Below, one piece after another: positions 2,634 through 56,578 of a DNA stretch of 56,578 bases (position 1 is the stretch's first letter; each line of letters opens with the position of its first letter). The stretch spans positions 1-56,578 of the forward strand of contig CAXXSM010000111.1 in the NCBI GenBank assembly GCA_963663405.2, in the 5' to 3' direction. Position numbers and translations under genes: made by a program. The notes under the pieces are model-generated. The model worked only from the letters and a program-made list of their open reading frames with translations. It ran no database searches and was not told the origin of the DNA. Source of the stretch: a bacterium. GTDB lineage: Bacteria; Hinthialibacterota; Hinthialibacteria; Hinthialibacterales; Hinthialibacteraceae.

Positions 2634-3233
2634 ATGAAATGGAATGGACGTGGCTTTACTTTGATTGAACTGCTGATCGTTGTCGCCATTATTGGAATTC
2701 TAGCGGCGATCGCAGTGCCAAACTTTCTTAATGCGCAGATTCGGGCGAAACTTGCGCAGTGTTATGGAAATCTCTCCTCGCTGCGGACCGCGATTGGGTC
2801 GTATGAAGTGGACTGGAACTGGCCTCCGATGGATATGGGAGGGGAGACTGAATATGGTGAAAGTTATAGACCATTGACGACTCCTGTCTCTTACGTTTCC
2901 AGTTACGGCATCGTAAAAGAAATTTTTCCGCCCAAAGATAGTTTACGTAATTATTATGAATACGGCGCCTCGCTTCGCTATGGAAGCGAACCGGATACAT
3001 CCGCCGGCCAGTCACGAGTGGCGCATTATCGAGCGGCTGGTGTTTCGTTCGTCTGCGTTTCCGGCGGTCCCGATGCGGATACGGATTGGCCCTGGACAGA
3101 TTGGGCGATTGGTCTAGAAGCTTTAAATACACCGAGTTTGGCCGGTGGGGACGGTGGCGCATTTTTCAATACCAGCAATGGCTTAAACTCTAGCGGAGAT
3201 ATCATCGGCACAAGCGCGAAAGTCTATCAATAA
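2634..3233 (+). CDS. Prepilin-type N-terminal cleavage/methylation (GspG/type IV pilin-like) protein
   Basis: G|FTLIELLIVVAIIGILAAIAVP class III signal; NAQIRAK, LTTPVSY, SGGPD and SNGLNSSGDI motifs; GGAG RBS. Confidence 0.9.
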   Translation: MKWNGRGFTLIELLIVVAIIGILAAIAVPNFLNAQIRAKLAQCYGNLSSLRTAIGSYEVDWNWPPMDMGGETEYGESYRPLTTPVSYVSSYGIVKEIFPPKDSLRNYYEYGASLRYGSEPDTSAGQSRVAHYRAAGVSFVCVSGGPDADTDWPWTDWAIGLEALNTPSLAGGDGGAFFNTSNGLNSSGDIIGTSAKVYQ

Positions 3234-3368
3234 GAACCCACCTTTATTCAATTTATTTTTATAAACCTATTGCGCGATTCATTATTTTATCTGCATTGTA
3301 GTTTTTGTTTCATTTACTATTTATTTAATAGTAAGCGTTATACAAATCTTTTTTAAAAGGAGATACAC

Positions 3369-4797
3369 ATGAAACGCTATTACTTTGTAATCCCATGGTT
3401 ATGTGTCCTGAGCGCTCCATTCGCCTTGGCGTTGGATATCACGCCGGTGTGGGAACATACGCTGATCGACGGTGGCGATGTTCTTCCGATTCTCGTCAAT
3501 GGTCCGGAAGATCCACGCTGGGATGGGGATCCTGAAGACGCCCCGTGGTATGGAATCAATCTTCACGATCAATACGATGGTTTTATTCGTTATGATGAGA
3601 ATCGTCTGATGCTGGGGATCCGGGACAATGGCATCGATGAAACCGATCCCGATCATGACGCTGCATTGGCCGCTCAGTATCCAGACCGTTCGATTCTCTG
3701 GATCGATCCCAATGACGGCTCTCCCCTTGGCGTCGCGATCCATGTCGGCTTCAAACCTGTTGAATTATCGGAGGAATACGAATCCATGATCGATGGCGGC
3801 TCCGGCGATCCCGCCATCGAAGGATGGGGCGATCCAAAAAACCGCCGCTTCGTTTCCGGCGAACAAAGCGCCCCGGAATACATGAATTTTGATGTCTCCG
3901 ATGATGGTGTAATCTACTTGGGCTACTGGTACATGATCCTCCGGTGGGATCCGGATGGCGCTGGTGGATTTACTGGCCCAACAATCGCGTACGAACACGA
4001 TTATCGTAACCACGGAGGAAACTGACAGACTCTCTCAATGGCGTTTCGGCGATATCGAGGTCCAGGGATCCGGCGCAAACACAGTCGTCATTACATCCGG
4101 GAAAACTTGGCGGAATGGAATGCGGATCCGTGTGTTTGACGTGGACGCCACGACCAATACATGGACAATCCGTGGAGATTATGGCGAAACGAAAAACGGT
4201 TGCTTCGGAGGAACTGGCGGTGTGAGTGTCCCTGTTACCGATAGTTTTGGTGACGAGATGATTTATATGGGAAGCAATGTGTCTGGTCATGGGATGAGCC
4301 GTTACGTTTGGACCGGCGATACTTATGAAGAAGATGCCGAAGAACTCTTCAATCCCGCTGCTCCCGAAGGCTCTGACGGATGGAATCACGCCATCCCAAC
4401 CAAATGGGCCAGTGACATCGCCACGCATCAGGACTTGGATTACATTCTTGCCGCTTCATCCCCCAGCTGGAATGGACAATCAAACGCCAATGAAATCGAC
4501 AAACCCGGCTTTATCACGGCGTATTCCATTGTTGGCGAAGAGCCAGTCGGCGAGTTTCTCGGCGATGTCATCTTTGGAAGCACAAAAGAAAGACCTCCCG
4601 TCGAGTCCGATGAGCCTTCCGCCGCATCCAGCGCCGCCGCGACTTGGAACGCGATTATGAGCCAGATCAAACTCTATCGCGCGTCTGATTATGAAGATGG
4701 CGCGTGCGAAATCCTTTACCTAAATCAAGTCTATGGCTACGGCCGTTATGTCATTGGCAATATTGACACTTCCATCGACCAATGGCCGCTCTATTAA
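3369..4797 (+). CDS. Secreted acidic protein with C-terminal W-x-L-Y motif; one frameshift near 3995-4010
   Basis: Signal peptide MKRYYFVIPWLCVLSAPFALA; AGGAG RBS. ORFs 3369..4025 and 3955..4797 overlap in different frames with the same D/G/W-rich composition. Ends TSIDQWPLY. Confidence 0.7.
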
Positions 4798-4826
4798 TCG
4801 AATAGAATTTTTCGTTAAATGACTTT

Positions 4827-4854
4827 ATGGGGCGTTTCCGGACGCCCCATTTTT
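4827..4854 (+). terminator. Rho-independent terminator
   Basis: ATGGGGCGT-ttccgg-ACGCCCCAT stem followed by TTTT, 30 nt after stop 4797. Confidence 0.75.
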
Positions 4855-4903
4855 CCTCCTCCCACTCGAATCCGACTCAACCTTACCCCCTCATTTTTCG
4901 TCA

Positions 4904-4960
4904 TTAATGAAGTGGGCTTTTCGCCCGTGATTGATGGAGCGCAGGCGTCCCGCCCGTGAA
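4904..4960. repeat. REP-like palindromic repeat family A (degenerate + intact tandem copies)
   Basis: TTGATGGAGCGCAGGCGTCCCGCCCGTGA (4931-4959) is preceded by the degenerate TTAATGAAGTGGGCTTTTCGCCCGTGA; an inverted copy lies at 8889-8919. Confidence 0.7.
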
Positions 4961-5000
4961 AAGAAGAGTCAATGAATAAGGAATTCCAAAATGATAATAC

Positions 5001-5046
5001 ACATCCTTAAAATCCTTTCATCTTGGATATCCGGATTCAGACAAAA
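5001..5046 (-). repeat. Dispersed ~46 bp repeat family B
   Basis: Reverse complement TTTTGTCTGAATCCGGATATCCAAGATGAAAGGATTTTAAGGATGT aligns without gaps to 20195-20240. Confidence 0.75.
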
Positions 5047-5161
5047 TAGTGAATGATCGTCGAATTCACGTCATATCAGTTTATAATATGTTTTGTTTAT
5101 GAGATCACTGGGAAAATTATTAATTCACCCATAATCAGAATAAAACAAAAAGGACAAACCA

Positions 5162-6001
5162 ATGCTTCTATGGTTGCTCATTGCGATTGGTATAGCAGGA
5201 TCGTTGATCGCGAACTTTACCATTATCGGCTTTGTTGGAGCCTATGGGGGCCAGGTGGAGTTATATCCCCCCTGGGTGGTTGAACTCCATCTCAACTTTT
5301 ACTGGTTCTCGTATCTGTTCATGGCGTTTAACCGCAAATTCTTCCATGTTACGACGCAGAAGGACTATTCGTTTTTAAAACCTGTCTTCCAATATTCGTA
5401 TAGCCTGAATCTGATCGCGTCCTTTATGCTCCGTTTCGCGTTTAATCAAAGTATTCTGGTTTCCTATATTGCTACCTTTGTCGTTCTGATGTGGATTCCA
5501 ATTCTTCTGACAATTCTATACCGGCCCTATTGGGAGAAGCGGCAGGAATCCGCGCGGATCGATGAGAAACAGCTGAAATCCATCGCTCTTCAACACGAAA
5601 TGGCCTATCGATTTACGGAACTCTATCCAGACTATAAATGCTTTGTGATCGATTACGCCGTGAAAAACGAAGTGGCGACGTGTCTTTTTTTACACCGGCG
5701 CAACCGGGATGATTTACCCGGACTCCAAGAAGATGTCATTCTGGAAATCCCCATTGATATAAAAAAGAAAATTCCTCTGAAGGGCCGGGAACAGATCCAA
5801 CGTTACATCTTCCGTCAAGGAGAAGGCGCCAGCGCCGTGATGCCCTTGCCGATGGAAGATCCTTTCAATACAGAGGAGATTGTTAAGCCCCTCGATCAAT
5901 ATATCCTCGATCAGTTCGATACTATTTTCAACCGTTTTCCCTCTCTGGAAATCACCCCACTTCCTATCGCGTCGCGTAACACTCTCTATCAAGAAGTCTA
6001 A
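5162..6001 (+). CDS. Hypothetical membrane protein (about 4 N-terminal TM helices + soluble C-terminal domain)
   Basis: 279 aa ORF, hydrophobic first ~120 aa, AAGGA RBS. Confidence 0.75.
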   Translation: MLLWLLIAIGIAGSLIANFTIIGFVGAYGGQVELYPPWVVELHLNFYWFSYLFMAFNRKFFHVTTQKDYSFLKPVFQYSYSLNLIASFMLRFAFNQSILVSYIATFVVLMWIPILLTILYRPYWEKRQESARIDEKQLKSIALQHEMAYRFTELYPDYKCFVIDYAVKNEVATCLFLHRRNRDDLPGLQEDVILEIPIDIKKKIPLKGREQIQRYIFRQGEGASAVMPLPMEDPFNTEEIVKPLDQYILDQFDTIFNRFPSLEITPLPIASRNTLYQEV

Positions 6002-6080
6002 CCAGATACGTGATGGAGTATTTCATCCTTCGTTTTTGCGAAGTACAATAGAGTCAACATCTTTGAGGAAAGGTAGAAAA

Positions 6081-6686
6081 GTGAGAGAAAAATCTTTTAC
6101 GTTAATCGAATTATTGATTGTCGTCGCGATTATCGGGATTCTCGCAGCGATCGCGGTTCCAAATTTCATGAACGCGCAGATTCGGGCGAAGATTGCGCGT
6201 GTGGCGGGAGATATGCGTAACATCGGTGTCGCCTTCGGCGCGTATTCCGTCGATCACAACGATTACCCACTGGGTATCATCACATTTCTCAGTCCACGGG
6301 AGAGGGATAGCTGGGGATTTTTACCCGAATGTCTGACAACCCCTGTCGCGTATTTAACAAGCCTGCCCGTCGACGAATTCAATCTGGATTACAAAATATA
6401 CGGTAATTCTGAAGGAACCGGCCCCTCTAGCAAAAGCGATCCACACGCGCGATATCGAACCGCCCGCCGCAAACCGTTTGGCGGCTCCAACGAAGGATGG
6501 ACAGCCAGCTGGAAAGCCATGCTGGCTGACACCGGCATCGACGGTGAGTATATTCTCACCAGTCCCGGTCCGGATAAAGTCGAGGATATACTCCCCGCCT
6601 ACAACCCACATCCTTACGCGACAAGCAACGGGCTGCTTAGTTCTGGAGATGTTGTATACTGTCCGGGCGGTCTGGCGGGAATATAA
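6081..6686 (+). CDS. Prepilin-type (GspG/type IV pilin-like) protein
   Basis: GTG start after GAGGAAAGG; S|FTLIELLIVVAIIGILAAIAVP; NAQIRAK, LTTPVAY, SPGPD, SNGLLSSGDV. Confidence 0.9.
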   Translation: MREKSFTLIELLIVVAIIGILAAIAVPNFMNAQIRAKIARVAGDMRNIGVAFGAYSVDHNDYPLGIITFLSPRERDSWGFLPECLTTPVAYLTSLPVDEFNLDYKIYGNSEGTGPSSKSDPHARYRTARRKPFGGSNEGWTASWKAMLADTGIDGEYILTSPGPDKVEDILPAYNPHPYATSNGLLSSGDVVYCPGGLAGI

Positions 6687-6690
6687 AAAT

Positions 6691-6715
6691 CAGTTTTTGG
6701 AAAACTGGTTTTTTT
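6691..6715 (+). terminator. Weak possible terminator
   Basis: CAGTTTT-tgg-AAAACTG followed by GTTTTTTT; AT-rich stem. Confidence 0.35.
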
Positions 6716-6826
6716 ACGTTTCACCATAGTAAATAATGGAGGAAAGGAGGAATGAGTTTAAGAGATCGATTGGTGTTCGAATGAACGCAACGATTAAATT
6801 TCAAAATAATTAAAAGGGAGAAGAAT

Positions 6827-7894
6827 ATGATAATGCGAATGAGTATTCTTTGTATGGTGTCTCTAATCGCGTTCGACGCGTCCGCTCAAACCCTGGTGGA
6901 GGATTTATACACGTCGGATGGTGACCACTCCCCGATCTCTCTGGTTGGCGGGCAGAAATGCGCTCAGCGGTTCACCGCTACGCTGCCGTTTGAAGGTATC
7001 CAAGTCAATGGCCCTACGTGGAGCGTCAGCGGAGAGAAAGGCCTTACGATCCGCCTGTACGAATGGGCGGGCAGTTACAGCGCCACCATCGTGCAAGATC
7101 CGATTACCGTAAGTGTCTTGGTTGACCTGACGGATAACGACTGGTGGCCCTGTTACGCTGGTTCAGAACTGCCTCCCGGTGAATACATGTGGGAAGCGTC
7201 CGAACCGACCAACTCGAATCCAGAAGCGGACAATCCCCACCAGATCGGTTGCTGGTTGGAGAATGGCAGCAAATACACAGGCGGCGAGGCCTATTTCAAC
7301 GGCGAACCGTATGGGGAGGTAGCCGTCGAATGGAAACGGGTTTATTCAGAAGCGCAGAGCGATGATGATTGGTATCCCTTCCCGTTTTCCGGCGCGGATA
7401 ATCCAACGCTCGCCCAGAGTTTCACGTTCCCGAGTGAATCGATTCCTGACGTCGACGCGTTCCAAGCAGTTGGAATCGCCAGTCCCACATGGAATGGCTC
7501 CGGCGCAGGATACCGGATGGTTCTATACAAATGGGATACGGATTACGACACAACCGTCGCTGGCACGCCCATCGCGGAGGAAACCTTTTCCAACATATCC
7601 GACAACGCCCGTAATGAACTGGTCCTCGATTCGCCGTTGGGAGAAGGGAAATACCTTGTTTTCACCGATCAACCTGTTCTCGGAAGCAATAACAGCGTCG
7701 GCCATTGGGGGTGGAACAATTCGCTCTGGTGGGATGATGAAAACGCCGCGTACCAGGATGGTGTGGAAATCGAGACAGGCGCCAGCTTCGATCTATTTCT
7801 CGGCGTGCCCAGTGAAGAAGTCGTAGGGAAAGACTTCGCTTCCCGAACAGTCACAGGCGTCGCTACAGCGGTTAACCACTGGGAATTGTATTAA
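6827..7894 (+). CDS. Secreted protein with two related beta-rich domains and C-terminal W-x-L-Y motif
   Basis: Signal peptide ending ASA. Internal duplication (AQRFT...GPTW...IRLYEW...LTDN versus AQSFT...SPTW...MVLYKW...ISDN). Ends TAVNHWELY. Confidence 0.8.
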   Translation: MIMRMSILCMVSLIAFDASAQTLVEDLYTSDGDHSPISLVGGQKCAQRFTATLPFEGIQVNGPTWSVSGEKGLTIRLYEWAGSYSATIVQDPITVSVLVDLTDNDWWPCYAGSELPPGEYMWEASEPTNSNPEADNPHQIGCWLENGSKYTGGEAYFNGEPYGEVAVEWKRVYSEAQSDDDWYPFPFSGADNPTLAQSFTFPSESIPDVDAFQAVGIASPTWNGSGAGYRMVLYKWDTDYDTTVAGTPIAEETFSNISDNARNELVLDSPLGEGKYLVFTDQPVLGSNNSVGHWGWNNSLWWDDENAAYQDGVEIETGASFDLFLGVPSEEVVGKDFASRTVTGVATAVNHWELY

Positions 7895-7986
7895 ACCAAT
7901 TGTTTAATAAAATGAAAGTATCAGGTCAGGCGCATGAAGTGATAAAATAACGATAATCATAAATCAAAGCATGATGAGAGAACTAT

Positions 7987-8022
7987 GCTCCCCCCAAGCC
8001 TGAGGAGAGTTAGGGGGGGAGC
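7987..8022. repeat. GC-rich palindrome (hairpin or REP-like)
   Basis: GCTCCCCCC...GGGGGGAGC inverted repeat in an intergenic region; no U-tract. Confidence 0.45.
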
Positions 8023-8134
8023 GTCGATGGAACGATCCTCTCGAAAGCCTTCTATATAGGGTTGGGAAGGAATTGTATACTTCATCTGACTTATCGATTA
8101 CACAGATTTCTCAAACCAAAACAAAGGCTTGGTG

Positions 8135-8827
8135 ATGAATTTACAATGTCTTCGCGCTTTAAAAAACAAGCGTCTGATCGAGATTCTCATTGTAATTATC
8201 GTCCTCATCCTTCTCCTTTTCCTATCTGTTCCTACGTTTTTAAAGGCGCAGATCCGTGCGAAACTGGCGTTAGTCAAAACGCAGTTTGAGGAAATCGGGA
8301 AAGCGATGGAAGCGTACCGGGCCGATTCGGAGATCTATCCCGCCGGATTCGCCCCCATCCCCATCGCTTGGATTGGGAAGAACCATTATTGGCAAAAGCA
8401 GTTAACCACGCCCACTCCGTATCTCACTCTTGAAACTATGATTCAACGTGATTTCTATCCGGAAGAGCGCGTTTCGGGAATCAGTGGAAAAGCGTTTCCA
8501 CGCAACGAGTGGAAACCACCGATCACTTACGGAGCCGTTACAAGTACATTTTTTTTGAATCCCTTTACAATCCAGCGTCTCCTGAAGAAAGACGCCGAAC
8601 AATGGTGGATTCTCTTCTCCTGCGGCCCGGACCGGATCGACACAAAAATCGCCAATGGCTGGGGGGGCGGAGGCCGTTTCCTCTACGATCCCTCAAACGG
8701 GCTTCTTTCTGAAGGTGACATCGTTCATGCGGGAGGGATAGAACATGACACTCGTTACGGCGTCCTTTGGGATCCTAATATCCCCGAAGAAGAACGAAAA
8801 CCCGGTCGCGTTCCCTGGTGTCCTTGA
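8135..8827 (+). CDS. Divergent GspG/pilin-like protein lacking a canonical prepilin cleavage site
   Basis: KRLIEILIVIIVL... in place of GFTLIELL, but retains AQIRAK, LTTPTPY, SCGPD and YDPSNGLLSEGDI. Confidence 0.8.
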   Translation: MNLQCLRALKNKRLIEILIVIIVLILLLFLSVPTFLKAQIRAKLALVKTQFEEIGKAMEAYRADSEIYPAGFAPIPIAWIGKNHYWQKQLTTPTPYLTLETMIQRDFYPEERVSGISGKAFPRNEWKPPITYGAVTSTFFLNPFTIQRLLKKDAEQWWILFSCGPDRIDTKIANGWGGGGRFLYDPSNGLLSEGDIVHAGGIEHDTRYGVLWDPNIPEEERKPGRVPWCP

Positions 8828-24840: not shown

Positions 24841-26199
24841 TTAGAATTTATAAATTAGGGAAGTCTGCAGCCGTACGCTGTCCCCATCTGTTTGGTATTT
24901 GTATTCTGTATCCCAATAGGAAACTTCAAAACCTACCAGCATGGCTTCATTAATCGAATAGAATGTGTTGCCGAATAGGGAATAATTCCGCGCGCGGTCG
25001 CCCGCGTTCAGATCCCGATCTCTTGGATCGTCAATGGCGGCGCCCAGCGTGAATTGCCATTTATCAAAGGGTCCCATGCTCAACGCGGCCCAGCCGCCTG
25101 TCGATTCAATCTCTTCGAGCAGCGCCCGATTGACGCCTTGGGCGATCCCACCTAAATAAGCGTCAAGATTCTCACCGATAAACCATTCTCCCTTCAACAT
25201 CAATTTCTCCATCAACGGAAGAACTAGATCGATGGAAGCGGACCAAGTGTCAAAATCCTTTCCGTGATCCGCATTATCTGCGTCATATTCTTCCTGTCCC
25301 CAATGACCTGATATGCCGAGAGTGGCGGGAGTATCCATCCACAACGGGACCGAATACGCCAATCGGCTTTGGAGCGTCGGAAAGCCGGCGTCCTCACCCG
25401 TGTCCCCAGGATCGAATCCCCAATCATCGCCGATCGTCCGCGCCAACGCGCCTTGGAGCAGCAGAGAGGAGTTCTCTCCAACATCAAAACCTTTTGATAA
25501 ACGAAATTGTGGACGCCGGTAGCCGATATCCCCAACCCACCAGTTCACAGCATAATTCAATGTGTTTGGGACGAGGGGAGAAATAACATCACTCGTCTGC
25601 CCGGCGAGAATGCTGAAATCGTATTCCGGCCAATTCATTTCCAAATACGCGTGCCGCATCATGAGATGGGATTTATTTTCCGCGCCACCGCCGTAGAAAT
25701 CGACTTCGACGCGTCCGCCGCTCTTGGCGTTTCCAAAGTCCGGTCCGTTGAATTGAAGGCCGAACCGGGATTGATTGGCGGTCATATTGAACTGATCGTC
25801 ATTACGGTTTGTCGCTTCGGATTCCACCCACCGGGCAAAGTCCCCGGCGTCGGTCCGCGCGGTATCATAGGCGGCGTCGAATTTCAGAAAGCCATATAAG
25901 TCCACGCCGAATTTCGTGTTGATGGCTTCCTGTGGAGCGCTAAGGCTCACTTGTTCCATTTGTTCCATCTTCTCGACTTGATCCGCCGCTGTCTGTTCCT
26001 GCTGATTCAACCGGTTTTCCAGTTCCTTGTTGCGTTTCTCCAAATCATTGACATGATTTTGAAGTTCCTCCATCTGCCGCTGCATCTTTAAAATAATTTC
26101 TTCTGTGGTTTGAGACCAGACAGGAACAGGTCCCATGCTCAGACTCACGGACAAACCAATCCACACATAGAACAATAGTACACGTTTTGTCACATTCAT
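24841..26199 (-). CDS. DcaP-like outer-membrane porin with N-terminal coiled coil
   Basis: Signal peptide, coiled coil, LYGFLKFD, QSRFG, EVDFYG, MRHAY, AGQT, RRPQFR; C-terminal YKF beta-signal. Confidence 0.8.
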   Translation of the reverse strand: MNVTKRVLLFYVWIGLSVSLSMGPVPVWSQTTEEIILKMQRQMEELQNHVNDLEKRNKELENRLNQQEQTAADQVEKMEQMEQVSLSAPQEAINTKFGVDLYGFLKFDAAYDTARTDAGDFARWVESEATNRNDDQFNMTANQSRFGLQFNGPDFGNAKSGGRVEVDFYGGGAENKSHLMMRHAYLEMNWPEYDFSILAGQTSDVISPLVPNTLNYAVNWWVGDIGYRRPQFRLSKGFDVGENSSLLLQGALARTIGDDWGFDPGDTGEDAGFPTLQSRLAYSVPLWMDTPATLGISGHWGQEEYDADNADHGKDFDTWSASIDLVLPLMEKLMLKGEWFIGENLDAYLGGIAQGVNRALLEEIESTGGWAALSMGPFDKWQFTLGAAIDDPRDRDLNAGDRARNYSLFGNTFYSINEAMLVGFEVSYWDTEYKYQTDGDSVRLQTSLIYKF

Positions 26200-31401: not shown

Positions 31402-33213
31402 ATGCGTTTTCGCCTTTCTTCTCCCCAGAAGACCTTTGTACGACTCGTTATTCTCGTTGGTTTCATCATTGTCATTGGCTATGATTTAGCCTCCACACTC
31501 CAAAACACATCTTCAACCGAAGCCATCCCCGTTTCTCAATTGATCGATGACGGTGTCCCGCCGGATTATACAACGAAAGTCTCTTTTATCCGGTCGGATG
31601 ATTCTTGTCTGAGCAATCCCGTCCCGCTTGATGAGGAACTCACCCTCGAACAGTATATCGATATGGTATACGCGCTTCTCGATATGTCAGGTGAACTCAC
31701 TCCGCTTCTGTTCGAAGGCGCTCACGTCGTCATAAAACCGAACGTTGTGGAGTTCGCTGAACTGGGCAATGGTGTTAATACCGATCCCCGCATGATCGAA
31801 GGTCTGATCCGATGGATGGAAGACCGGGGGCCGGATGGTTTGCAATACACTGTCGCTGAAGCGGCGGGGGGTTGGATTTCCAGCGAGATGCGGCATACGA
31901 AATACTACTCCAGCGGCACGTCGGGCGATGGATACCGGGAAGCGGGATACACCGATATGCAGCAGCGCCTTGCCGATGATGGAATCACCATGGATATCGT
32001 CGACGCCAATTTCGGTTCGTACGATAATCCTCTTGAAGGCATTCGCTACGTCCCGGTTCCTGAATGGATTGATTTTCCCGAAGCCAGCGGATACTGGGTT
32101 CACGAAGTCCTCCTCAATGCCGACGTGTTGATCAATACGCCGGTAATGAAAATACACAATCCCCAAATTACAGTTTGTCTTAAGAACTACATCGGCATCG
32201 CCGCCGGTGCGAAATATGGCACCTATAAAGGTGTCGGCGGACCGGATCCAGGCGATCCCCGTCTTCACAAAGACTATCCCACGCGCAACTCGGTCGAAAA
32301 AGAGATTGTCGATCTGGCTTCTCTCGCGCCCGCTGATTTTTCTCTCGTCGACGCCGTGATTTGTAAAGAACGGGCCAAGACCGCCTCCTCTCCCTCCGTG
32401 CGTAGAAATATGATGATCGCCGGTACCGATATGGTCGCGATCGATACAATCTGTTCGCTGCTGATGGGACTCAATCCCGATGACGTTTCCCATCTCTATA
32501 CCGCCGCCCGTGAAGGATTCGGTACGATGGATTTGGATCGTATCACCGTTGAAGGGGAACATACAATCGAAGAATCAGCCTATTATTTCGTACGCACCCC
32601 GCAAGGCGATTCGGGAAACCGGGGACATTTCGGCATGAGCAACCGGATCTGGCTGCTCAACGCCGCTTCAGGAACCGATATCGATACGTCGTACCTGAGT
32701 GTGCCCGACGCGGAATTGATCGGTATCCCCGGCTCGGATGGTTGGACGGAACCGATTCAGTTCTCAGATGATATCATCGACTTCGAAGCCTATTACGGCG
32801 CGACAAACGATAACGTCTATTACGCCTTCAGCTGGCTCACGGTTCCAGAAGAACAGGACGCCGAATTGTGGATCTCTCATGACGAATCCTGCGCCGTTTG
32901 GATCGGCGGTGAGCAAGTCTACTACAAAAAAGTTCGCTATCAAGAAACGGCGTTGCCCGATCAATCTTCTGCAACGATTCATCTAACGGCGGGCCGTCAT
33001 CCAATGATCGTCAAACTGGTTGACACTTCACGGACAGCGCCGTTCGTGTTGAATATCTGCCGCATCCTGCCCGACACGCTCCCGGCGGGAAAAGCGACTT
33101 ATACAAATTTAAGAACCAGTTCAAATTATAGACGCTATGAAGGCACCCGCGTTCTCGGTCTGAAATACGACACCGGAACCGCTTCCACAACCCCAAATTG
33201 GGATCAATACTAA
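31402..33213 (+). CDS. DUF362 domain protein with N-terminal signal/anchor, extra C-terminal beta domain and W-x-x-Y tail
   Basis: VVIKPN, TDP, VAEA, INTPVMKIH, TVCLKNYIG and DMVAID motifs; ends STTPNWDQY. Confidence 0.8.
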   Translation: MRFRLSSPQKTFVRLVILVGFIIVIGYDLASTLQNTSSTEAIPVSQLIDDGVPPDYTTKVSFIRSDDSCLSNPVPLDEELTLEQYIDMVYALLDMSGELTPLLFEGAHVVIKPNVVEFAELGNGVNTDPRMIEGLIRWMEDRGPDGLQYTVAEAAGGWISSEMRHTKYYSSGTSGDGYREAGYTDMQQRLADDGITMDIVDANFGSYDNPLEGIRYVPVPEWIDFPEASGYWVHEVLLNADVLINTPVMKIHNPQITVCLKNYIGIAAGAKYGTYKGVGGPDPGDPRLHKDYPTRNSVEKEIVDLASLAPADFSLVDAVICKERAKTASSPSVRRNMMIAGTDMVAIDTICSLLMGLNPDDVSHLYTAAREGFGTMDLDRITVEGEHTIEESAYYFVRTPQGDSGNRGHFGMSNRIWLLNAASGTDIDTSYLSVPDAELIGIPGSDGWTEPIQFSDDIIDFEAYYGATNDNVYYAFSWLTVPEEQDAELWISHDESCAVWIGGEQVYYKKVRYQETALPDQSSATIHLTAGRHPMIVKLVDTSRTAPFVLNICRILPDTLPAGKATYTNLRTSSNYRRYEGTRVLGLKYDTGTASTTPNWDQY

Positions 33214-34371: not shown

Positions 34372-37300
34372 TTATTGGCAATCTTCCACAATCCCCAATC
34401 CGTCTAATTCCTCGTATACCCAATACGGAACTTCCAGCAAATTCACCTGATCGGTTGTATCAATAATAATCGTAACCGGCAGGTTTGGATTTGCGGAATA
34501 ATCTGGAGGATTCGTAGGACCGTTAGCGATGACAGAATTGTAAATAGTGGAGGCGATTCCCTGATCCCATGAGATATACCCCCCGCTGTCAATCCCATTT
34601 CCACCGATTGTGGGCGTTCCGTTAAACAATAGCATCCAGATCACCGCCTGGATCTCATTATTCGAAGGCGCAAGAGAATCAAACGTGCCAATGCGGTAAT
34701 TCACTAACAGATAATTCACCAACGCAAAATGTCCGGGATAATCAACCAGAGAACAGACCGATGTTTCGGAAGTATAGAGACTCACATTGTCATACCACTT
34801 ACCCAGCTGAATTTTTGTCAACATATCCGCGCACCACGCGGGATAGATCTCGTTCCCTCCCAGCGCCGTTGCAGGGATGAATCGCGCGTCAAAATAACCA
34901 TCATCGACGCCAGGAACATCTGCAGTAGGCCAATACCGCCCGCCCAATCCATCTCCATTCACGAGATAACTCCTGTCAATCGAAACACAATCAAAAGGAT
35001 CGAGTCCATTCTGAGGCGAATAATAAAAATCAGGGCCAATCCGGTTTTGCAGGACAAGAACAGCCGCCCAATCATCGCAGGAGAGATTGTTATTACTGAC
35101 ATCCACATAATCTCCCGCTCCAATACCTATATTGGCGATGAGACTGGAAAGGTTTGATAATTGATTGTTGGAACAATGAAGATCGATGAGAGCAGTACAG
35201 TTCGATACATTCAGGCTGGTTAATTGATTGTCATAACAGAAGAGTGATTCTAACGCGGGATTGCCGGAAACATCCAAACTCTGTAAATTATTCTCTTCAC
35301 AGAGGAGACTGATCAAATCTACGTTTTGGGATACATCTAGAGTCGCTAAATAATTCAATCCACAAATAAGCGATTCCAAATCTCCATTATGAGATACATC
35401 CAAACTGGGTAATTGATTGTTATAACTGTTGAGATCCAATAATAAGGAACAGTGAGAGACATCCAGATTGGTTAATTGATTCTCACTGCAGTCGAAAAAA
35501 GTCAGTCTGGAAGCGCTGGATATATTCAGGCTGGTCAATAGATTGTTATTGCAAAAAATAGTTTCTAAAGCGCTTGAGCCGGGAACAATCAGGCTTGCTA
35601 ACTCATTATTACTGCAGGTAAGATTAGTTAAGGCGGTATTGATGGAGATATTTAAGTTTGTTAATTGATTCCCGCTGCAATTAAAACCATCAATACTTGC
35701 AAAATACTCAATCCCAGTTACATTTTGGATAAATTGATTGGAGCAATTCAGATTTCCAATTTTTGTCACTGCGTCAGTAGCGAGAATAATTCCACCCGGC
35801 GCAACGCCCATGAAATTCTCCACAGCGTTGCGGAAATTCGGATCGGGGAAATTCTCTGGAGTGTTGATATTGCAGGCAAACGGATCCATGCCATTCTGGG
35901 GAAGAATATGAAAATCAAAACCGATCCAATTTTGTAGTGTAATAATATCAATTAAGTCATCGCATGATAGATTATTGTATCTTAAATCAATATAACTCGA
36001 TTTAGTGAAATTAATACTTTTGGCTAGACCAGAAATGTTAGTTAATTGATTGTGGCTACAATTGAAATAATTATAAATTTGATTATCAGAGATTTGAAGG
36101 CTGCTTAATTGATTGGAACTACAATGGAGACTTGTGAGACTTGGCGCGTTTGAAATGTCTAGACTTTTTAATTCATTGATGTAGCAATAGAGTGTTTCCA
36201 ACGCGGTGTTATTCGAGAGATTCAAACTGGGAATTTGATTTTCATTGCAATCGAGATATACCAAAGCAGTATTAAGGCTGATGTCCAGAGTTGTTAGTTG
36301 GTTTTTACCGCATTGGAGCCATTCTAATGCCATGTTATGTGAGACATCCAAGGTTGGTATATGATTGTTCGAGCACGCGAGATGCTGTAAAGAAGTATTG
36401 TGGGATACGTCCAGTCTGGTTAAGTGATTCCCATAGCACCACAGTTCTTGTATACCTGTAAAAAATTGAATTCCTGTCAAATCTGTGATATTTCGATAGA
36501 TACAATCGAGACGGTCCGTCTTCGCCGCCGCGTCGGTCGCGGTGAAAATCCCCCCCGGAGCGACGCCCATAAAATTCTCCACAGCGCTTCGAAAATTTGG
36601 ATCCGGAAAATTGGTCGCTGTATTAATATTATCACTGGACGCGCACACAAATGGATCCATCCCATTCTGAGGGGAATAACTCAAAATCACACCCCGATTT
36701 TGCAATTCAACAATATCGTCCCAATCATCGCAGGTTAAATTGTTGTATCGTACATCGACGACATCACTTGCTCCTAAACCCAGATTAGCGGCTAGACTCG
36801 AAATATTTGGTAATTGATTGTTATGACAATCTACATAGACGAAATCTGTAACGTTAAGGACATTCAGATTTGATAATTGATTGTCATGGCAAGTGAGATA
36901 CGTTAAAGCGGTATTATTGCATAGATCTAAGCTGGAAAGTTGATTCGTATTGCAATTAAGTCCTTCAATACCGCTAAAATATTCAATTCCGGACGCAGAA
37001 AGTATATTTTGACTTGCGCAATCCAAATTACCCGCCTTAGCGCCTGCATCATAGGCAGTGATAATTCCATCCGGAGACACTCCCATAAAACTTTCCAGCG
37101 CACGTCTGAAATTTTGATCGGGGATATGAATAGGTGTGTTGATATTGCAATCAAATGGATACAAACCATTCTGTGGAGAATAATGAAACCGGTAATGTAC
37201 AATCCGTTTTTTTAAAGCAAAAATATCAGCCAAATCATCACAGTCTAAATTATTGTAACTTATATCAATATAATCACTACCTTGAAGACCTGGATTGGCG

Positions 37301-39240
37301 ATTAGACTTGAAATACTTATTAATTCATTGTGATAGCAACTCAAGTTTTCTAAAGCAGTGTTGTTTGAGACATTCAGACTGGTTAATCCATTATTATAGC
37401 AGTAAAGATATATCAAAGCTATGTTGTGAGAGATATCTAGGCTTGTAAGTTGGTTATATTCGCATCGCAGAAGTTCTAAGAGCGTATTCTGAGAGACATC
37501 TAGGCTTGTTAACTGATTGTTATTGCATAAAAGAGTGACTAAAGAAGTAGCGCTACTGACATTTAGGCTGGATAATTGATTGTTATAGCATTGGAGAAAA
37601 GTCAAAGCCACATTCTGCGAGAGATCCAAACTGGTTAATTGATTATTGTTGCAGAAAATCTCCTGTATCCCAGTAAAAAACTCGATACCAGTCATATCAG
37701 TAATATTATCGTATTCACAGTCGATTCTCCCTGTCTTCGACGCCGCGTTGGTCGCGGTAAAAATCCCTCCCGGAGCGACGCCCATAAAATTCTCCACAGC
37801 GCTTCGAAAATTTGGATCTGGAAAATTGGTCGCTGTATTAATATTATCACTGGACGCGCACACAAATGGATCCATCCCATTCTGAGGGGAATAACTCAAA
37901 ATCACACCACGATTTTGCAATGCGATAATATCATCCCAATCATCGCAGGTTAAATTGTTATATCTGACATCAACTTCATCTCCCGATCCCAACCCAGGGT
38001 TGGCAGTCAGACTTGAAATACTGATGAGTTGGTTATTGAGGCAGGATAATCGTTTCAAAAATGGATTGTTCATAACGTCTAGGCTGTTTAAATGATTTTG
38101 AGAGCAGAACAATCGTTCCAATAATGAATTATTTGAAAGATCCAAACTGGTTAATTGATTGCTAAAGCAGGATAGGAAATTCAAAGCCAGATTCTGCGAG
38201 ACATCCAAATCCGTTAATTGATTCCCATAGCAGGAAAGTTCTTCTAAAGCGGTGGCATTCGAGACATCCAAGCTGGTCAATTGATTCCCAAAACAGTCGA
38301 GATCCAGTAAAGCGGGATTATTTGATATATTAAGATATGTTAATTGATTTTGGTAGCAATAGAGAGTTTCTAAGGCTGTGTTTTTAGATACATCTAAACT
38401 GGTTAATTGATTGCGATAGCAGTAAAGCAAATCGATCCCGGTAAAATACTCGATACCGGTCATGCTGCTAATATTATGAAAACAGCAGATAAAATGATCT
38501 GTCTTCACCGCCGCTTCAGTGGCGGTAAAAACACCACCGGATACCACCCCCATATACTCTTCAACAAAATCCCGAAACTGTGGATCTGGAAAATTCGTCG
38601 CTGTATTGATATTGTCTATCGCCGCGCAATAAAAGGGATCCATCCCATTCTGCGGGGAATAATTTACAATCACGCCCCGGTTTTCAAGGGTTAGAATATT
38701 TCTCCAGTCATCACAGGTCAGATTGTTGTATCGTAGATCCACTTCATCACTTGCTTCTAAAATCGGCGAAGCGATAAGACTGGTAATATCTGTTAATTGA
38801 TTGTTATTACATTTCAGATTCGTTAAACTGGATGCGCCTGCGATCACTAAACCGCCGATCTGATTCCAACTGCAATCGATTTGGATCAAATCGGACGCGT
38901 TCGAAATATCCAGGTAGGTCAATTGATTGTTACTGCAATCAAACGCTTCCAGGCTGGAGAAATATTCGATTCCAGTTACGGCGCCGATCGTTTGACTGGC
39001 GCAATCCAAAGTCCCCGTCATCGCCGCTGCTTCAGTCGCGGTAAACACGCCCCCTGGAGCGACGCCCATAAAACTCTCAACACAACTCCGGAAATTCGCA
39101 TCTGGAAAATTGGCCGCTGTGTTGATGTTGATCTGCGCGATGGATGGATTGATCATAATTACGCTGAATAATGATAACAAAAGTATGATTGTTACGTTTC
39201 TAGAATGCTTGAAATAGAGGTATCTATCCACAATAGACAT
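34372..39240 (-). CDS. Large secreted internalin-like LRR protein (six capped LRR modules) with C-terminal thioester-domain-like region
   Basis: Signal peptide; six NINT..[NH][FI]PD..FR caps, LxxLxCxxNQLTSLDVS repeats, PQNG[ML]xPF closers; C-terminal AWCAD...IQAVIW...DQVNLL. Confidence 0.9.
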   Translation of the reverse strand: MSIVDRYLYFKHSRNVTIILLLSLFSVIMINPSIAQININTAANFPDANFRSCVESFMGVAPGGVFTATEAAAMTGTLDCASQTIGAVTGIEYFSSLEAFDCSNNQLTYLDISNASDLIQIDCSWNQIGGLVIAGASSLTNLKCNNNQLTDITSLIASPILEASDEVDLRYNNLTCDDWRNILTLENRGVIVNYSPQNGMDPFYCAAIDNINTATNFPDPQFRDFVEEYMGVVSGGVFTATEAAVKTDHFICCFHNISSMTGIEYFTGIDLLYCYRNQLTSLDVSKNTALETLYCYQNQLTYLNISNNPALLDLDCFGNQLTSLDVSNATALEELSCYGNQLTDLDVSQNLALNFLSCFSNQLTSLDLSNNSLLERLFCSQNHLNSLDVMNNPFLKRLSCLNNQLISISSLTANPGLGSGDEVDVRYNNLTCDDWDDIIALQNRGVILSYSPQNGMDPFVCASSDNINTATNFPDPNFRSAVENFMGVAPGGIFTATNAASKTGRIDCEYDNITDMTGIEFFTGIQEIFCNNNQLTSLDLSQNVALTFLQCYNNQLSSLNVSSATSLVTLLCNNNQLTSLDVSQNTLLELLRCEYNQLTSLDISHNIALIYLYCYNNGLTSLNVSNNTALENLSCYHNELISISSLIANPGLQGSDYIDISYNNLDCDDLADIFALKKRIVHYRFHYSPQNGLYPFDCNINTPIHIPDQNFRRALESFMGVSPDGIITAYDAGAKAGNLDCASQNILSASGIEYFSGIEGLNCNTNQLSSLDLCNNTALTYLTCHDNQLSNLNVLNVTDFVYVDCHNNQLPNISSLAANLGLGASDVVDVRYNNLTCDDWDDIVELQNRGVILSYSPQNGMDPFVCASSDNINTATNFPDPNFRSAVENFMGVAPGGIFTATDAAAKTDRLDCIYRNITDLTGIQFFTGIQELWCYGNHLTRLDVSHNTSLQHLACSNNHIPTLDVSHNMALEWLQCGKNQLTTLDISLNTALVYLDCNENQIPSLNLSNNTALETLYCYINELKSLDISNAPSLTSLHCSSNQLSSLQISDNQIYNYFNCSHNQLTNISGLAKSINFTKSSYIDLRYNNLSCDDLIDIITLQNWIGFDFHILPQNGMDPFACNINTPENFPDPNFRNAVENFMGVAPGGIILATDAVTKIGNLNCSNQFIQNVTGIEYFASIDGFNCSGNQLTNLNISINTALTNLTCSNNELASLIVPGSSALETIFCNNNLLTSLNISSASRLTFFDCSENQLTNLDVSHCSLLLDLNSYNNQLPSLDVSHNGDLESLICGLNYLATLDVSQNVDLISLLCEENNLQSLDVSGNPALESLFCYDNQLTSLNVSNCTALIDLHCSNNQLSNLSSLIANIGIGAGDYVDVSNNNLSCDDWAAVLVLQNRIGPDFYYSPQNGLDPFDCVSIDRSYLVNGDGLGGRYWPTADVPGVDDGYFDARFIPATALGGNEIYPAWCADMLTKIQLGKWYDNVSLYTSETSVCSLVDYPGHFALVNYLLVNYRIGTFDSLAPSNNEIQAVIWMLLFNGTPTIGGNGIDSGGYISWDQGIASTIYNSVIANGPTNPPDYSANPNLPVTIIIDTTDQVNLLEVPYWVYEELDGLGIVEDCQ
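36518..36755. repeat. Intragenic near-identical ~240 bp duplication (partner at ~37733..37970)
   Basis: Long identical stretches such as GGAAAATTGGTCGCTGTATTAATATTATCACTGGACGCGCACACAAATGGATCCATCCCATTCTGAGGGGAATAACTCAAAATCACACC at both sites, 1215 bp apart. Confidence 0.9.
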
Positions 39241-39600: not shown

Positions 39601-41121
39601 TTATTGACAATCCCCCACAACCCCCAAACCATCTAATTCCTCATACACCCAATACGGAACTTCAAGCAAATTTACCTGATCAGTTGTGTCGATGATAATC
39701 GTAATCGGCAGATTTGGATTATCCATATAATCAGGAGGATTCGCTGGTCCGTTGGTCATTACGGAATTATAAATTATGGACGCGATTCCCTGATCCCATG
39801 AAATATATCCCCCACTGTCAATCCCATTTCCACCGATACTGGGCGTTCCATTAAACAATAGCATCCAGATCACCGCCTGGATCTCATTATTGGAAGGCGC
39901 AAGAGAATCAAACGTGCCAATACGGTAATTCACCAACAGATAATTCACCAACGCAAAATGTCCGGGATAGTCAACCAGAGAACAGACCGATGTTTCGGAA
40001 GTGTAGAGACTCACATTGTCATACCACTTCCCCAGCTGAATGTCTGTCAACTTATCCGCGCACCATGCGGGATATGTTTCTTCTCCCCCCAACGCTGTCG
40101 CGGGAACAAACCGCGCATCGAAATACCCATTAATGCTTGGCCAATACCGCCCCCCCAATCCATCCCCATTCACGAGATAACTCATGTCAATCGATCCGCA
40201 CTCAAATGGATCCAAATTATTCTGTGGAGAGTAATAAAAACGGGAGCCAATTCGATTTTGTAGTACCTGAATAGTAGCCCAGTCATCGCAAGATAGATTA
40301 TTATTCCTAACATCTGCTCTTCCGATCCGTGTACACGCGATCAAACTAGAAATGTTCGTTAATAGATTGTCTGAACATAGTAGTGTCCTTATAACTTTAT
40401 TATGCGAGACATCAAGACTGGTTAATTGGTTGTTGAAACATTCGAGAGTAATTAAAGCGGGAACATTAGACAAATTTAGGTTGGTTAGTTGGTTGTTGTC
40501 GCAATATAGAAATCTTAAAGCAGGCATGTTAGAGAGATCGAGATTCTTTAATTGGTTGAAACTGCAATGTAGTTTATCGAGAACGGGATAATTATCGGTG
40601 AAATTAAGGTCTGTTAATTGATTGTAAGAACAATTAAAAAAACTTAAATAGGTAGCGTCAGGGATAGTAAGGCTTTTTAATTGATTTAAAGAACAGTCAA
40701 GAGAACGTAAATGGTTAGCGTTAGGGATGGTAAGGCTTTTTAATTGATTATTCTCGCACTTGATTCTATTCAATTTAGTATTGTGCGAGAGATCCAAATG
40801 TTCAATTTGGGTATAATTGAAATATAACGTAAGCGTGCCGGTAAAAAATTCAATGCCGGTTGCATTCTTAATATTAGGATTATAGCAGGAGAAGGGCCAA
40901 TAATTCGCCGCCGCTTCTGCGGCAGTAAAAGCGCCTCCTCGACGGACACCCATATAATTCTCCGCTGCTTCGCGGAAATACGGATCTGGAAAATTCTCTT
41001 CTGTATTAATGTTCTGCGTAAAAGAGAGATCGGCCATACACACGCATAGCAGAGCCACCGATACCGCCATGAAAATCCTGCGGCGATTGCGTTGAAAGAC
41101 ATTATTTTCTATATTCGGCAT
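39601..41121 (-). CDS. Single-module LRR paralogue with the same C-terminal thioester-domain-like region
   Basis: GAGGAG RBS before ATG 41121; one LRR module; last ~200 aa nearly identical to those of 34372..39240. Confidence 0.9.
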   Translation of the reverse strand: MPNIENNVFQRNRRRIFMAVSVALLCVCMADLSFTQNINTEENFPDPYFREAAENYMGVRRGGAFTAAEAAANYWPFSCYNPNIKNATGIEFFTGTLTLYFNYTQIEHLDLSHNTKLNRIKCENNQLKSLTIPNANHLRSLDCSLNQLKSLTIPDATYLSFFNCSYNQLTDLNFTDNYPVLDKLHCSFNQLKNLDLSNMPALRFLYCDNNQLTNLNLSNVPALITLECFNNQLTSLDVSHNKVIRTLLCSDNLLTNISSLIACTRIGRADVRNNNLSCDDWATIQVLQNRIGSRFYYSPQNNLDPFECGSIDMSYLVNGDGLGGRYWPSINGYFDARFVPATALGGEETYPAWCADKLTDIQLGKWYDNVSLYTSETSVCSLVDYPGHFALVNYLLVNYRIGTFDSLAPSNNEIQAVIWMLLFNGTPSIGGNGIDSGGYISWDQGIASIIYNSVMTNGPANPPDYMDNPNLPITIIIDTTDQVNLLEVPYWVYEELDGLGVVGDCQ

Positions 41122-41440
41122 AAGTATCTCCTCTAACAATACTCTTTTTCCTCCATTCGCCCCCCAAAACCAATGGACGGATAATTGAAAAAAAAGAGAT
41201 AGGAACGCTTCCAAGGGAATAGAATAACAAAATGAATTGTACATCAATAATTATATGTTGAGTAGGCGTATACTATTTAAATAGTGGTTAAAATTTCACG
41301 AGATTTGCCTCTCGATTGGGGAAAGGAAAAGTATTGCTTGATAGGGATTGAAAATTGAAATGGTGTGGTGCAAAATTGCTTGGAGATCAATTCTTTTCTT
41401 CTGTATTACTCTAAAATTGTGAAAATCAGAATTCTCCCCC

Positions 41441-50622: not shown

Positions 50623-50652
50623 CGTACAATCAACTGTTTGTTATTCGATCAA

Positions 50653-53122: not shown

Positions 53123-53710
53123 GTGAAACCCAAACAAGCGTTCACATTAATCGAACTTCTAATCGTAGTAGCCATTATCGGAATCCTGGCCGCCATCGCC
53201 GTGCCCAATTTTTTAAATGCCCAGATCCGCGCCAAAGTCGCCCGCGCCTTCTCGCGGATCAAAAAACGATGGACACCGCCATTCAGCAGTACATGCTGGA
53301 CGAAAACGACAATCCCCCCCACTCGCACGCCCCGAATCAGAATTATTGGCTCACCACGCCTGTGGCGTATTTATCCTCGTTCCTATACGATCCATTTCAA
53401 GACACACCGATCGCGCAGGATTTCTTTGGCTCCGATCTTCAATATCACAAAAAACAGTATCACTGGGACCCACTCGATACGAGATACTGGTCGAGCCTCT
53501 CCCTGGATAACAATCGATCCCGAACGCGAGCCGGAACTCGGTCACTGGCTCAAATCCATTGGGATCATCTTCGGCATGGGCCCGTCTATGAAATACACGG
53601 GCTACTCAGAATTCACCTTCGGCGTCGCCTTCATCCCCTACGAGCCTTCAAACGGATTAATCAGTTTAGGAATCATACGGCGCTATGTTCCGGGCAAACC
53701 AAAGGTTTAA
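53123..53710 (+). CDS. Prepilin-type (GspG/type IV pilin-like) protein with two compensating frameshifts
   Basis: A|FTLIELLIVVAIIGILAAIAVPNFLNAQIRAK and YEPSNGLISLGII are in frame 53123, but the family motif LTTPVAY lies in frame 53101 between ~53250 and ~53510. Confidence 0.85.
   Translation: MKPKQAFTLIELLIVVAIIGILAAIAVPNFLNAQIRAKVARAFSRIKKRWTPPFSSTCWTKTTIPPTRTPRIRIIGSPRLWRIYPRSYTIHFKTHRSRRISLAPIFNITKNSITGTHSIRDTGRASPWITIDPEREPELGHWLKSIGIIFGMGPSMKYTGYSEFTFGVAFIPYEPSNGLISLGIIRRYVPGKPKV
53546..53710 (+). repeat. Direct repeat copy 1 (last 55 codons of the pilin gene)
   Basis: 165 bp; aligns to 54955..55120 with 16 substitutions and 1 extra C. Confidence 0.95.
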
Positions 53711-54051
53711 TTATGCGCTTTTAATGTGCTTGGAAGAATGAATCAATGTATTGAAGGAGAGATTTTAAATCATCATTTATGAATCAAAAAAACAAGATTC
53801 GTTGGACATTAAGGATAGGTGGTATAGGATAGGTAAAACTTTATCTGTTTAAAATTCCTCCAATATTTTTGCCTCTCTAAAACTTTGATGACATTAGCTT
53901 TCACAGAAGCATTGAGTAAGAAAAAAAAAATCGATCTTTCCCTATACAAAATCATATAACCTTTGCTATTCTATATATGGTTTTATGAATTTTCGTAGGT
54001 ATTGATGAATATTAAGCGGCAAATCATGTAAAAATGGAGGTGTGATTAATA

Positions 54052-54901: not shown

Positions 54902-54954
54902 TTTGTACAAAGCGCGAATATCCTCCCTACTCGTATACTCTAAACCATTACTTT

Positions 54955-55120
54955 TGGCTCAAATCCATTGGGATCATCTTCGGCATGGGGCCGTCCATGA
55001 AATACACGGGCTACTCAGAATTCACCTTCGGCGTCGCCTTCATCCCCTATGAGCCTTCAAACGGATTGATGAGCCTGGGAATCATACGCCGCTACGTCCC
55101 CCGGCAAACCGAAAGTATGA
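54955..55120 (+). repeat. Direct repeat copy 2 (orphan pilin 3' end)
   Basis: Encodes WLKSIGIIFGMGPSMKYTGYSEFTFGVAFIPYEPSNGLMSLGIIRRYVP(+C)GKPKV-stop with no 5' gene body. Confidence 0.95.
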
Positions 55121-55384: not shown

Positions 55385-56578
55385 CTAATACAACGCCCAC
55401 TCCTCAACAGAAACATCAAACGGCGCGCTATAATGCGCAATGATCCGCTCTTCCGAAAGCGCGATATCGTAGATAGCCACTTCATCGATATAACCGTTGA
55501 AATTATCTCCCTGATCGGAACCGCCGATGTGCAACTCATTCCCATCACCGATCGCCGCTTGACCCGCTTGCGTATCCATAAGTTCCCCATCTAGATACAC
55601 CCGCATTTCCGGTACCGAATTATCATACACAAAGACCGCGTGATACCATTGATCGGTCTGATTGGGAACCGTCGTTGCCGGGCGGGTGGAATATTCCGAG
55701 AAATATTCCAATTGTTCGGGATTGTAAGCGTAGATCATAGCCTGCTGCGTGTTGCCCGCTCGGCGGAAACAGCAGGTAGGATTGAGAACTGAGACCGATT
55801 GGATTCATCCATAGTTCATAGGTGAACGATTCAAAGGGATACAGAGCCTCCGCTTCGTAACTGGAAATCCGCCCACTCAGCGCGTAATTGGATGGATCTT
55901 TCGGACCGGTCACATAACGCACGCCGCTGGGAAGCAAGTCGTAGAGTCCCATTTCATCATTGAAATCATCCTCAAACCGCCAGTACACCTTCGGTTCATC
56001 CGCCAGAACCGCGGCGGGATAGTCATCCGGAAACGCGGCGTTGTAATGCGCCTCAATCTGTTCGGCCGTAAGCGCGTGTGTATAAATGGCTATTTCATCG
56101 ATTTCTCCATTAAACACATTCTCTCCGATCGCCGTCCGGGTCGCTCCGATATAGATCTCTTCATCATGACCAGGAAGGATAAACTCAAGATAACTCTCTT
56201 GCCGGCTCACTTCCTGACCGTCTAAATAGGCGATGATGGCGGGAATATCTTCATTGTATACAAAAACAATGTGATGCCATCCTTCAGTGTTATCCGGCAG
56301 TTCAATCGACGGGGGTTCAGAGCCGAATTCTTGAAAGGAAGAATAGAATTCCAACTGGTTTTCAGTCATGTTATACACCAAAGAATTTTGACCGCTTCCC
56401 ACCGGCGCGCCCGAACGGCGCATTAACACGTAGGTTCCCCCCTCATTCGAACCGTTCACATTGATCCACATTTCATAAGTGTAGGAAATCAGATCAAAGA
56501 GCTCGATCGCTCCAAACGACGCCGCCCACGCCTGGCCTCCATTGGTGGAAAACGCTTGCGTTCCAGAACCTGGGCCGC
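55385..56578 (-). CDS. LamG/concanavalin A-like tandem domain protein with C-terminal W-x-L-Y motif; 5' end outside the window, one frameshift near 55770
   Basis: WHHIVFVY, YLDG, FNGEIDEIAIY, and again WYHAVFVY, YLDG, FNGYIDEVAIY; ends VSVEEWALY; frame open to the right edge. Confidence 0.85.

Follow-up and report, generated by a model that had tools for sequence, protein, structure and literature searches.

Cargo recognition by machines that resemble a type II secretion system (T2SS) is still poorly defined (PMC10120004). In toxin-coregulated pili, the export signal of TcpF is described as a short, disordered linear stretch bound by the minor pilin TcpB with cognate specificity (PMC10120004), and in T2SS a C-terminal calcium-binding site is reported for GspG, together with a loop of the major pilin which sets the specificity of the system (PMC13081927). 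In Planctomycetes, DUF1559 prepilins are reported as an expanded set of genes, dispersed and flanked by signal-peptide genes (PMC8567305). The description of Candidatus (Ca.) Hinthialibacter antarcticus refers to Tad pili and to the degradation of biopolymers; "C-terminal" is a term absent from its main text (PMC9324843). We analysed a 56,578-nucleotide (nt) stretch of a Hinthialibacterota genome (contig CAXXSM010000111.1 of assembly GCA_963663405.2, hereafter the window), which contains four genes of one prepilin family together with genes whose products share a short C-terminal tail. The pilins are members of a large family of GspG-like prepilins found in Hinthialibacterota and Sumerlaeota, the tail is probably a C-terminal sorting signal, and the genes of the two kinds are loosely co-located, with one pair conserved. 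We found no description of the pilin family or of the tail in a literature search which lay largely outside subscription journals and took in no supplements.

The planctomycete DUF1559/SBP_bac_10 family is the nearest analogue, as the family described here is likewise dispersed near signal-peptide genes, but its heads are shorter and GspG-like, with LTTP, GPD and NGxxSxG motifs, it occurs in other phyla and its neighbours share a tail. The heads gave no Pfam match at E ≤ 1, SBP_bac_10 included, and the H-X9-DG motif of DUF1559 prepilins, which the original prediction had reported as absent, is found as a pattern in one of 65 members. The toxin-coregulated pilus (TCP) and colonisation factor antigen III (CFA-III) systems are alike in using a short linear signal on a Sec-exported protein, which here might likewise be read by pilins, whereas their signal is N-terminal, on one cargo and in one operon; here the tail is C-terminal, on many unrelated proteins, and the pilins are many and of major type.

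A large family of GspG-like prepilins

The pilin and tail genes of the window on which the analysis rests are as follows.

2634..3233, + strand: prepilin 1, with a class III signal (G-FTLIE) and a GspG-like head; Pfam N_methyl, E 2e-8; conserved orthogroup
3369..4797, + strand: tail gene 1, for a signal-peptide protein with C-terminus TSIDQWPLY, tail score 16.9; split by a frameshift
6081..6686, + strand: prepilin 2, with a GTG start and S-FTLIE; modelled type IV pilin fold
6827..7894, + strand: tail gene 2, with a signal peptide, two jelly-roll domains resembling carbohydrate-binding modules (CBMs) and C-terminal TAVNHWELY
8135..8827, + strand: prepilin-like 3, divergent, KRLIE replacing FTLIE; TIGR01710 score 34.6 bits; long branch
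53123..53710, + strand: prepilin 4, with A-FTLIE; middle part in another frame (compensating frameshifts)
55385..56578, - strand: LamG-repeat tail gene, ending in VSVEEWALY, score 17.2; Laminin_G_3; frameshift near 55800; truncated by the window end

All four window pilins carry AQIRAK, GP[DS] and SNGL.S.G.[IV], as originally predicted, whilst LTTP..Y, ascribed to all four as well, is in frame in three; in pilin 4 (LTTPVAY) it is off-frame because of the compensating frameshifts. We take the GPD motif and a GD[IV] motif to be candidates for a calcium site. Pfam N_methyl was matched by 2634, 6081 and 53123; 8135 gave no N_methyl match in the Pfam scan, has no G/A/S-F cleavage site and is the single exception to the class III signature (G/A/S-F..E), which is kept in 64/65 family members. 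The best or near-best NCBIfam match of the window pilins is GspG (TIGR01710; 46.6, 51.9, 34.6 and 32.5 bits for pilins 1–4, all below the curated cut-off of 88.85). The best structural matches, at middling values, are the T2SS proteins EpsG and PulG (below), and in the Atlas clusters of the family (2984 and 2075 members, Sumerlaeota commonest) Pfam T2SSG is found on 20–26% of members. The family differs from GspG in its scores (32–52 bits), in its length (~200 residues against ~135), in its many paralogues, mostly outside gsp operons, and in the PilT gene within the ATPase cluster of a relative.

A scan of GTDB genomes gave at least 587 stretches, of which 377 were confirmed and 78 loci kept, and all locus counts given here rest on these matches as listed. 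Pilins with NGxxSxG occurred in 46 of the 78 loci (29 genomes), which we refer to as family loci, and the other 32, with ordinary pilins of other phyla, served as controls. The family loci hold at least 61 pilins, which agrees with the predicted expansion of a pseudopilin-like family, and those with a name are from Sumerlaeota/BRC1 or Ca. Omnitrophota. Close homologues bear the name Ca. Hinthialibacter sp. (68% identity to pilin 1, 78% to pilin 2) or Ca. Omnitrophota, names which point to Ca. Hinthialibacterota (OLB16); OLB16 genomes are often labelled Ca. Omnitrophota at NCBI. Four copies occur in the 57 kb window, and up to eight per genome within partial loci; in one locus (L013, 3782–8664) five family pilins stand in tandem without a tail neighbour.

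Pilin 1 has ~70 relatives at 42–83% identity, and orthologues at 45–83% run to dozens for pilin 1 as well as for pilin 2, whereas the heads of paralogues share a median identity of 28% (1385 pairs). The pilins are therefore stable orthogroups and not fast variants. An AlphaFold model of pilin 6081 (predicted local distance difference test, pLDDT, 86.8) shows a helix at residues 8–59 followed by strands, and its top 19 structural matches are all pilins, led by EpsG (Z 7.3, root-mean-square deviation (rmsd) 2.7, 98 aligned residues), PulG (Z 6.8, rmsd 3.4, 116 aligned) and the type IVa pilin PilA4 (Z 5.9). The modelled structure has a type IV pilin fold, with EpsG and PulG tied as closest at Z values which are middling. 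A Foldseek search with the same model gave no match at E ≤ 0.001, and a sequence search of solved structures matched essentially the N-terminal helix alone.

A short C-terminal tail on unrelated signal-peptide proteins

The tail has the consensus [ST]xVxxWxLY, or more broadly [ST]-x-[VI]-x-x-W-x-[LVM]-[YFH], and was scored with a nine-column matrix trained on 37 tails from homologues of 6827 only, independent of the loci, at a cut-off score of 4. A tail was found on 21/315 complete genes of at least 200 amino acids in family loci (~7%, including one match in L026 which is probably false) and on 0/230 in control loci (p = 1e-5); in this sample it is restricted to family loci, where it is present in both lineage types (14/193 and 5/91 genes). 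A crude signal-peptide rule was satisfied by 17/20 tail genes, against 81/279 others (p = 9e-7). The tail proteins are nearly all mutually unrelated in an all-against-all BLAST, and eight of the 22 scanned have Pfam matches, including LamG, BNR, PKD, subtilase, CotH and beta-propeller, with none in the remaining 14; several have binding or hydrolytic domains. As a portable C-terminal module on unrelated signal-peptide proteins, the tail resembles the C-terminal domain of the type IX secretion system (T9SS), PEP-CTERM, sortase/IPTL-type signals, SLH and dockerin, but it is ~9 residues long, hydrophilic and has neither a membrane helix nor a folded domain, and the sorting-signal models of Pfam and NCBIfam gave no match on the window tail proteins.

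Homologues of 6827 show what may stand in the place of the tail. Among 148 new distant relatives, four have a C-terminal tail, 39 a hydrophobic anchor and 105 are unclassified by the rule used, and among hand-picked relatives which were scanned (sets of 25 and 31) there were three T9SS C-terminal domains, three dockerins and one SLH. Because 6827 homologues elsewhere end in T9SS, SLH, dockerin or membrane anchors, the tail takes the place that a sorting module would have at the C-terminus, and we infer that it is probably a sorting signal. The model of protein 6827 (pLDDT 83.6, last block 52) has two CBM-like beta jelly rolls and a tail of low confidence, with jelly-roll matches at Z 8–12.6 and CBMs at 8.0–8.4; Foldseek gave six weak matches with rmsd >20. 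The tail residue W352 is nearly invariant in homologues. Two relatives (P0160 and P0288) have TSP3 repeats followed by a short motif, a membrane helix and a basic tail in place of the W tail; these ends, which matched no model, are presumably IPTL-CTERM-like.

Loose co-location and one conserved pair

The predicted adjacency of pilin and tail genes was compared with gene orders shuffled within each of the 46 family loci, after open reading frames (ORFs) of <150 amino acids had been dropped from the gene order, and 12/21 tail genes were found to abut a family pilin against 6.3 in shuffled orders (p = 0.004, cut-off 4). The adjacent cases come from ten genomes, gaps are 25–110 nt in 7 of the 12, and all orientations occur (downstream on the same strand 3, upstream on the same strand 5, upstream on the opposite strand 3, downstream on the opposite strand 1). 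Adjacency is more frequent for tail genes (12/20) than for non-tail signal-peptide genes (26/81, p = 0.02), the latter not being clearly enriched (p = 0.13). Seen from the pilins, 12/61 have a tail neighbour and 49/61 have none; on a quick, weakly supported pilin tree, from which window pilin 4 was excluded because of its frameshifts, possession of such a neighbour shows no clustering (14 changes against 13.6 shuffled). In a further locus (L034, 1851–3906) another GspG-like prepilin, which lacks NGxxSxG and has a counterpart in L025, is separated from the tail gene after it by 4 nt; other pilin types may therefore pair with tail genes too.

Strict alternation of pilin and tail genes, as the window had first been described, is not general. 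Pilin 6081 does directly precede tail gene 6827, with a gap of 140 nt, and 8135 follows. Upstream, 3369 is the next gene after 2634 as predicted, but it is split by a frameshift into two pieces, 3369–4025 and 3955–4797, with the tail on the second, and the alternation is interrupted because a membrane-protein gene (5162–6001) sits between tail gene 1 and pilin 6081. In the family loci a pilin is followed by a same-strand tail gene in 3/54 cases (1/54 at cut-off 6). Pilin 4 and the tail gene at 55385, described as facing each other, are both present but ~1.7 kb apart; between them lie a disrupted gene of low GC and a second copy, 92% identical, of the pilin 3' end. The co-location is a loose one.

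The proposal that particular pilins pair with particular substrates fares differently for the two pairs. Co-location was assessed by orthologues on contigs of identical nucleotide size, a proxy which tells neither order nor strand: orthologues of 6081 (43) and of 6827 (38) share nine identical contig sizes, including 1841, 2867, 5509 and 5594 nt, whilst control lists gave 0/69, 0/49 and 1/76. The 1841-nt contig barely fits both genes. By co-location the 6081–6827 pair is conserved. On contigs of at least 7 kb, 5/18 orthologues of 6827 match a 6081 orthologue, and clustering may hide others. The pilin heads in these pairs are 65–90% identical and therefore under constraint, and distances are correlated between the paired genes (Mantel r 0.65), which would be expected from vertical descent as well. 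A complex prediction of the 6081 head (28–201) with mature 6827 (21–355) scored 0.00 against a mark of 0.32; controls were not folded, and it is counted neither way. For 2634, a 76%-identical orthologue in L001 converges with a tail gene of the other strand which is unrelated to tail gene 1, and 3369–4797 has no homologue in L001 or in any of the 46 loci, L001 representing the one genome in which this pair could be checked.

Assembly machinery

No assembly ATPase or platform gene was found in the window by a Pfam scan of 42 ORFs and by tblastn with three ATPases and two GspF/PilC proteins of relatives, and the same Pfam scan contained no secretin family, as the original prediction had it. There is no gsp operon in the window. 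The further suggestion of that prediction, that the machine is encoded elsewhere, finds support in relatives, in which machine genes adjoin family members in 2 of the 46 loci: an ATPase cluster in one (PilB/GspE-PilT-PilB/GspE, L010 10629–15360, convergent on a family pilin) and GspF/PilC genes in the other (two genes with minor pilins upstream of a family pilin, L011 6129–10825).

Competing explanations

The reading we put forward tentatively, at somewhat less than an even chance, combines one type IV filament machine common to the pilins, a C-terminal tag which serves export or retention in a generic way, and numerous pilin variants in loose co-location with tagged genes. The pilins form a large set of GspG-like prepilins of major type, dispersed over the genomes of Hinthialibacterota and Sumerlaeota; each represents an orthogroup of long standing whose head is conserved, as seen for 2634 and 6081. 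They would be processed and assembled by a shared machine of T2SS or type IVa pilus kind encoded elsewhere, such as the genes found in two relatives may provide. The tail would very likely be a generic second-step export or surface-retention signal, and if so, the chances are even that it is read by the filament machine, with pilin variants tuning the proteins or surfaces which are engaged. Co-location would be loose because both kinds of gene serve the same surface function, and some pairs would be retained under no rule of one pilin to one cargo. In a bolder version, dozens of exchangeable major-type pseudopilins would act as cargo-selecting adaptors on one machine, with a linear C-terminal tag on many cargoes and some pilins co-inherited with their cargo gene (6081/6827), which we consider unlikely.

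Several results weigh against the tentative reading of a shared machine. None of the results ties the tail to the machine, a search for machine genes turned up no secretin, and the PilT gene of the cluster in L010 suggests a pilus that retracts more than it does a classical T2SS. The Z of 7.3 lies in the range given by common arrangements, with PilA4 following at 5.9. The excess of adjacency is only about twofold, in a small sample (46 family loci) in which some genomes contribute several loci; cut-off 4 was picked after the score list had been seen, and stricter cut-offs of 6, 8 and 10 gave 9/18, 9/17 and 7/13 adjacent tail genes (p = 0.055, 0.031 and 0.060). The co-occurrence of both families in two related phyla can also reflect shared history.

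The pilins and the tail may instead belong to independent systems, an explanation we regard as possible yet doubtful. The tail would then be read by something other than a pilin (a translocon of the outer membrane, an enzyme such as a protease or transpeptidase, or a docking site on an S-layer or glycan), the pilins would serve a retractile pilus as its adhesive or sensing subunits, the genes would cluster as solitary accessory envelope genes and 6081–6827 would be ordinary inherited gene order. The occurrence of all four orientations, the 49/61 pilins with no tail neighbour, the PilT gene and the few 6827 orthologues on larger contigs which match a 6081 orthologue (5/18) are all as this would have it, but tail genes adjoin pilins more often than other signal-peptide genes do, the gaps are short in 7/12 cases and both families are found in both phyla sampled.

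Cognate adaptors, in which each pilin orthogroup would bind a particular tail protein or class, with the tail as common hook and the head as specificity, and would deliver it through the shared machine or display it on the filament, are in our view improbable. The nine exact contig sizes shared by 6081 and 6827 orthologues (controls 0–1), the similarity of the paired heads with their correlated distances, also expected from vertical descent, and the L034 pilin whose end lies 4 nt from the tail gene after it speak for them; against them, the 2634 orthologue faces an unrelated tail gene and 3369–4797 has no homologue in the family loci, a pilin leads into a same-strand tail gene in 3/54 cases only, tail neighbours are unclustered on the tree and no tail gene adjoins the tandem arrays, in which up to five pilins occur. 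What stands of the predicted substrate pairing is the cargo-like tail proteins and the conserved 6081–6827 pair. Finally, a repertoire of interchangeable major pilins or silent cassettes for antigenic variation or phage evasion, with tail genes as bystanders, would fit the constant N-terminus and variable heads, the tandem arrays and the 92% remnant of the pilin 4 3' end, but within an orthogroup the heads stay conserved between genomes that have diverged, the leader is intact in 64/65 copies and gene conversion between paralogues is unlikely because heads only 28% alike are too distant; we consider this highly improbable.

A tag which can be scored on many unrelated proteins, together with a conserved library of pilins, would make substrate selection testable by tail swaps, and the co-location of pilins and tails gives a hint of a pilus-type route of export, as yet undescribed, whose signal is simple and linear. 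Should the pilins play no part, the tail still has the look of a sorting signal peculiar to these lineages, without a Pfam or NCBIfam model, and it could serve for predicting which proteins reach the surface in two phyla that are uncultured and degrade polymers.

Other features of the window

The window also contains the following features.

4827..4850, + strand: terminator-like hairpin of intrinsic type, 10 pairs, 6 G-C, 3' of tail gene 1
5162..6001, + strand: predicted multi-pass membrane protein of no family, between tail gene 1 and prepilin 2
6691..6715, + strand: weak A/T-rich hairpin and T-run between prepilin 2 and tail gene 2, read by eye
31402..33213, + strand: DUF362 protein with tail TTPNWDQY, weaker tail score 6.4, N-terminal hydrophobic segment, far from any pilin
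54955..55118, + strand: remnant second copy of the prepilin 4 3' end, 92% over 146 nt

A terminator scan of the window gave eight sites against 6.9 expected, the strong one being 4827–4850. The hairpin at 6691–6715, from which a weak terminator had been predicted between pilin 6081 and its tail gene, is visible but has two G-C pairs only and is not among the scanner's eight sites. Tail gene 1 gave no Pfam or NCBIfam match, and an Atlas search with 3955–4797 (best score 0.89, low recognition) left a lead only, with no family assigned. The membrane protein 5162–6001 likewise has no Pfam or NCBIfam family, and no homologue among the 46 family loci. Frame breaks occur in tail gene 1, in pilin 4 and in the LamG tail gene near 55800, and are probably sequencing indels.

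Next to pilin 4, the stretch 53711–55118 contains a broken gene of ~38% GC in several pieces (54046–54901), flanked by pilin 4 and the 92% copy of its 3' end. It may be the scar of an insertion, or else a tandem paralogue in decay. GGND..G and DELHP motifs in the broken gene, which had no convincing Pfam match, presumably recall an SGNH hydrolase. Directly upstream of pilin 4 and divergent from it, 50630–52869 (- strand) consists of ~385-nt repeat units of 60–76% identity, which encode an unassigned repeated domain over frameshifted ORFs. Farther away, where GC is low, 34372–39240 and 39601–41247 (- strand) encode two leucine-rich-repeat proteins in tandem whose C-termini are almost the same, and 24841–26199 (- strand), between two chemoreceptor genes, encodes an unassigned 452-residue signal-peptide protein whose YKF end recalls an outer-membrane barrel.

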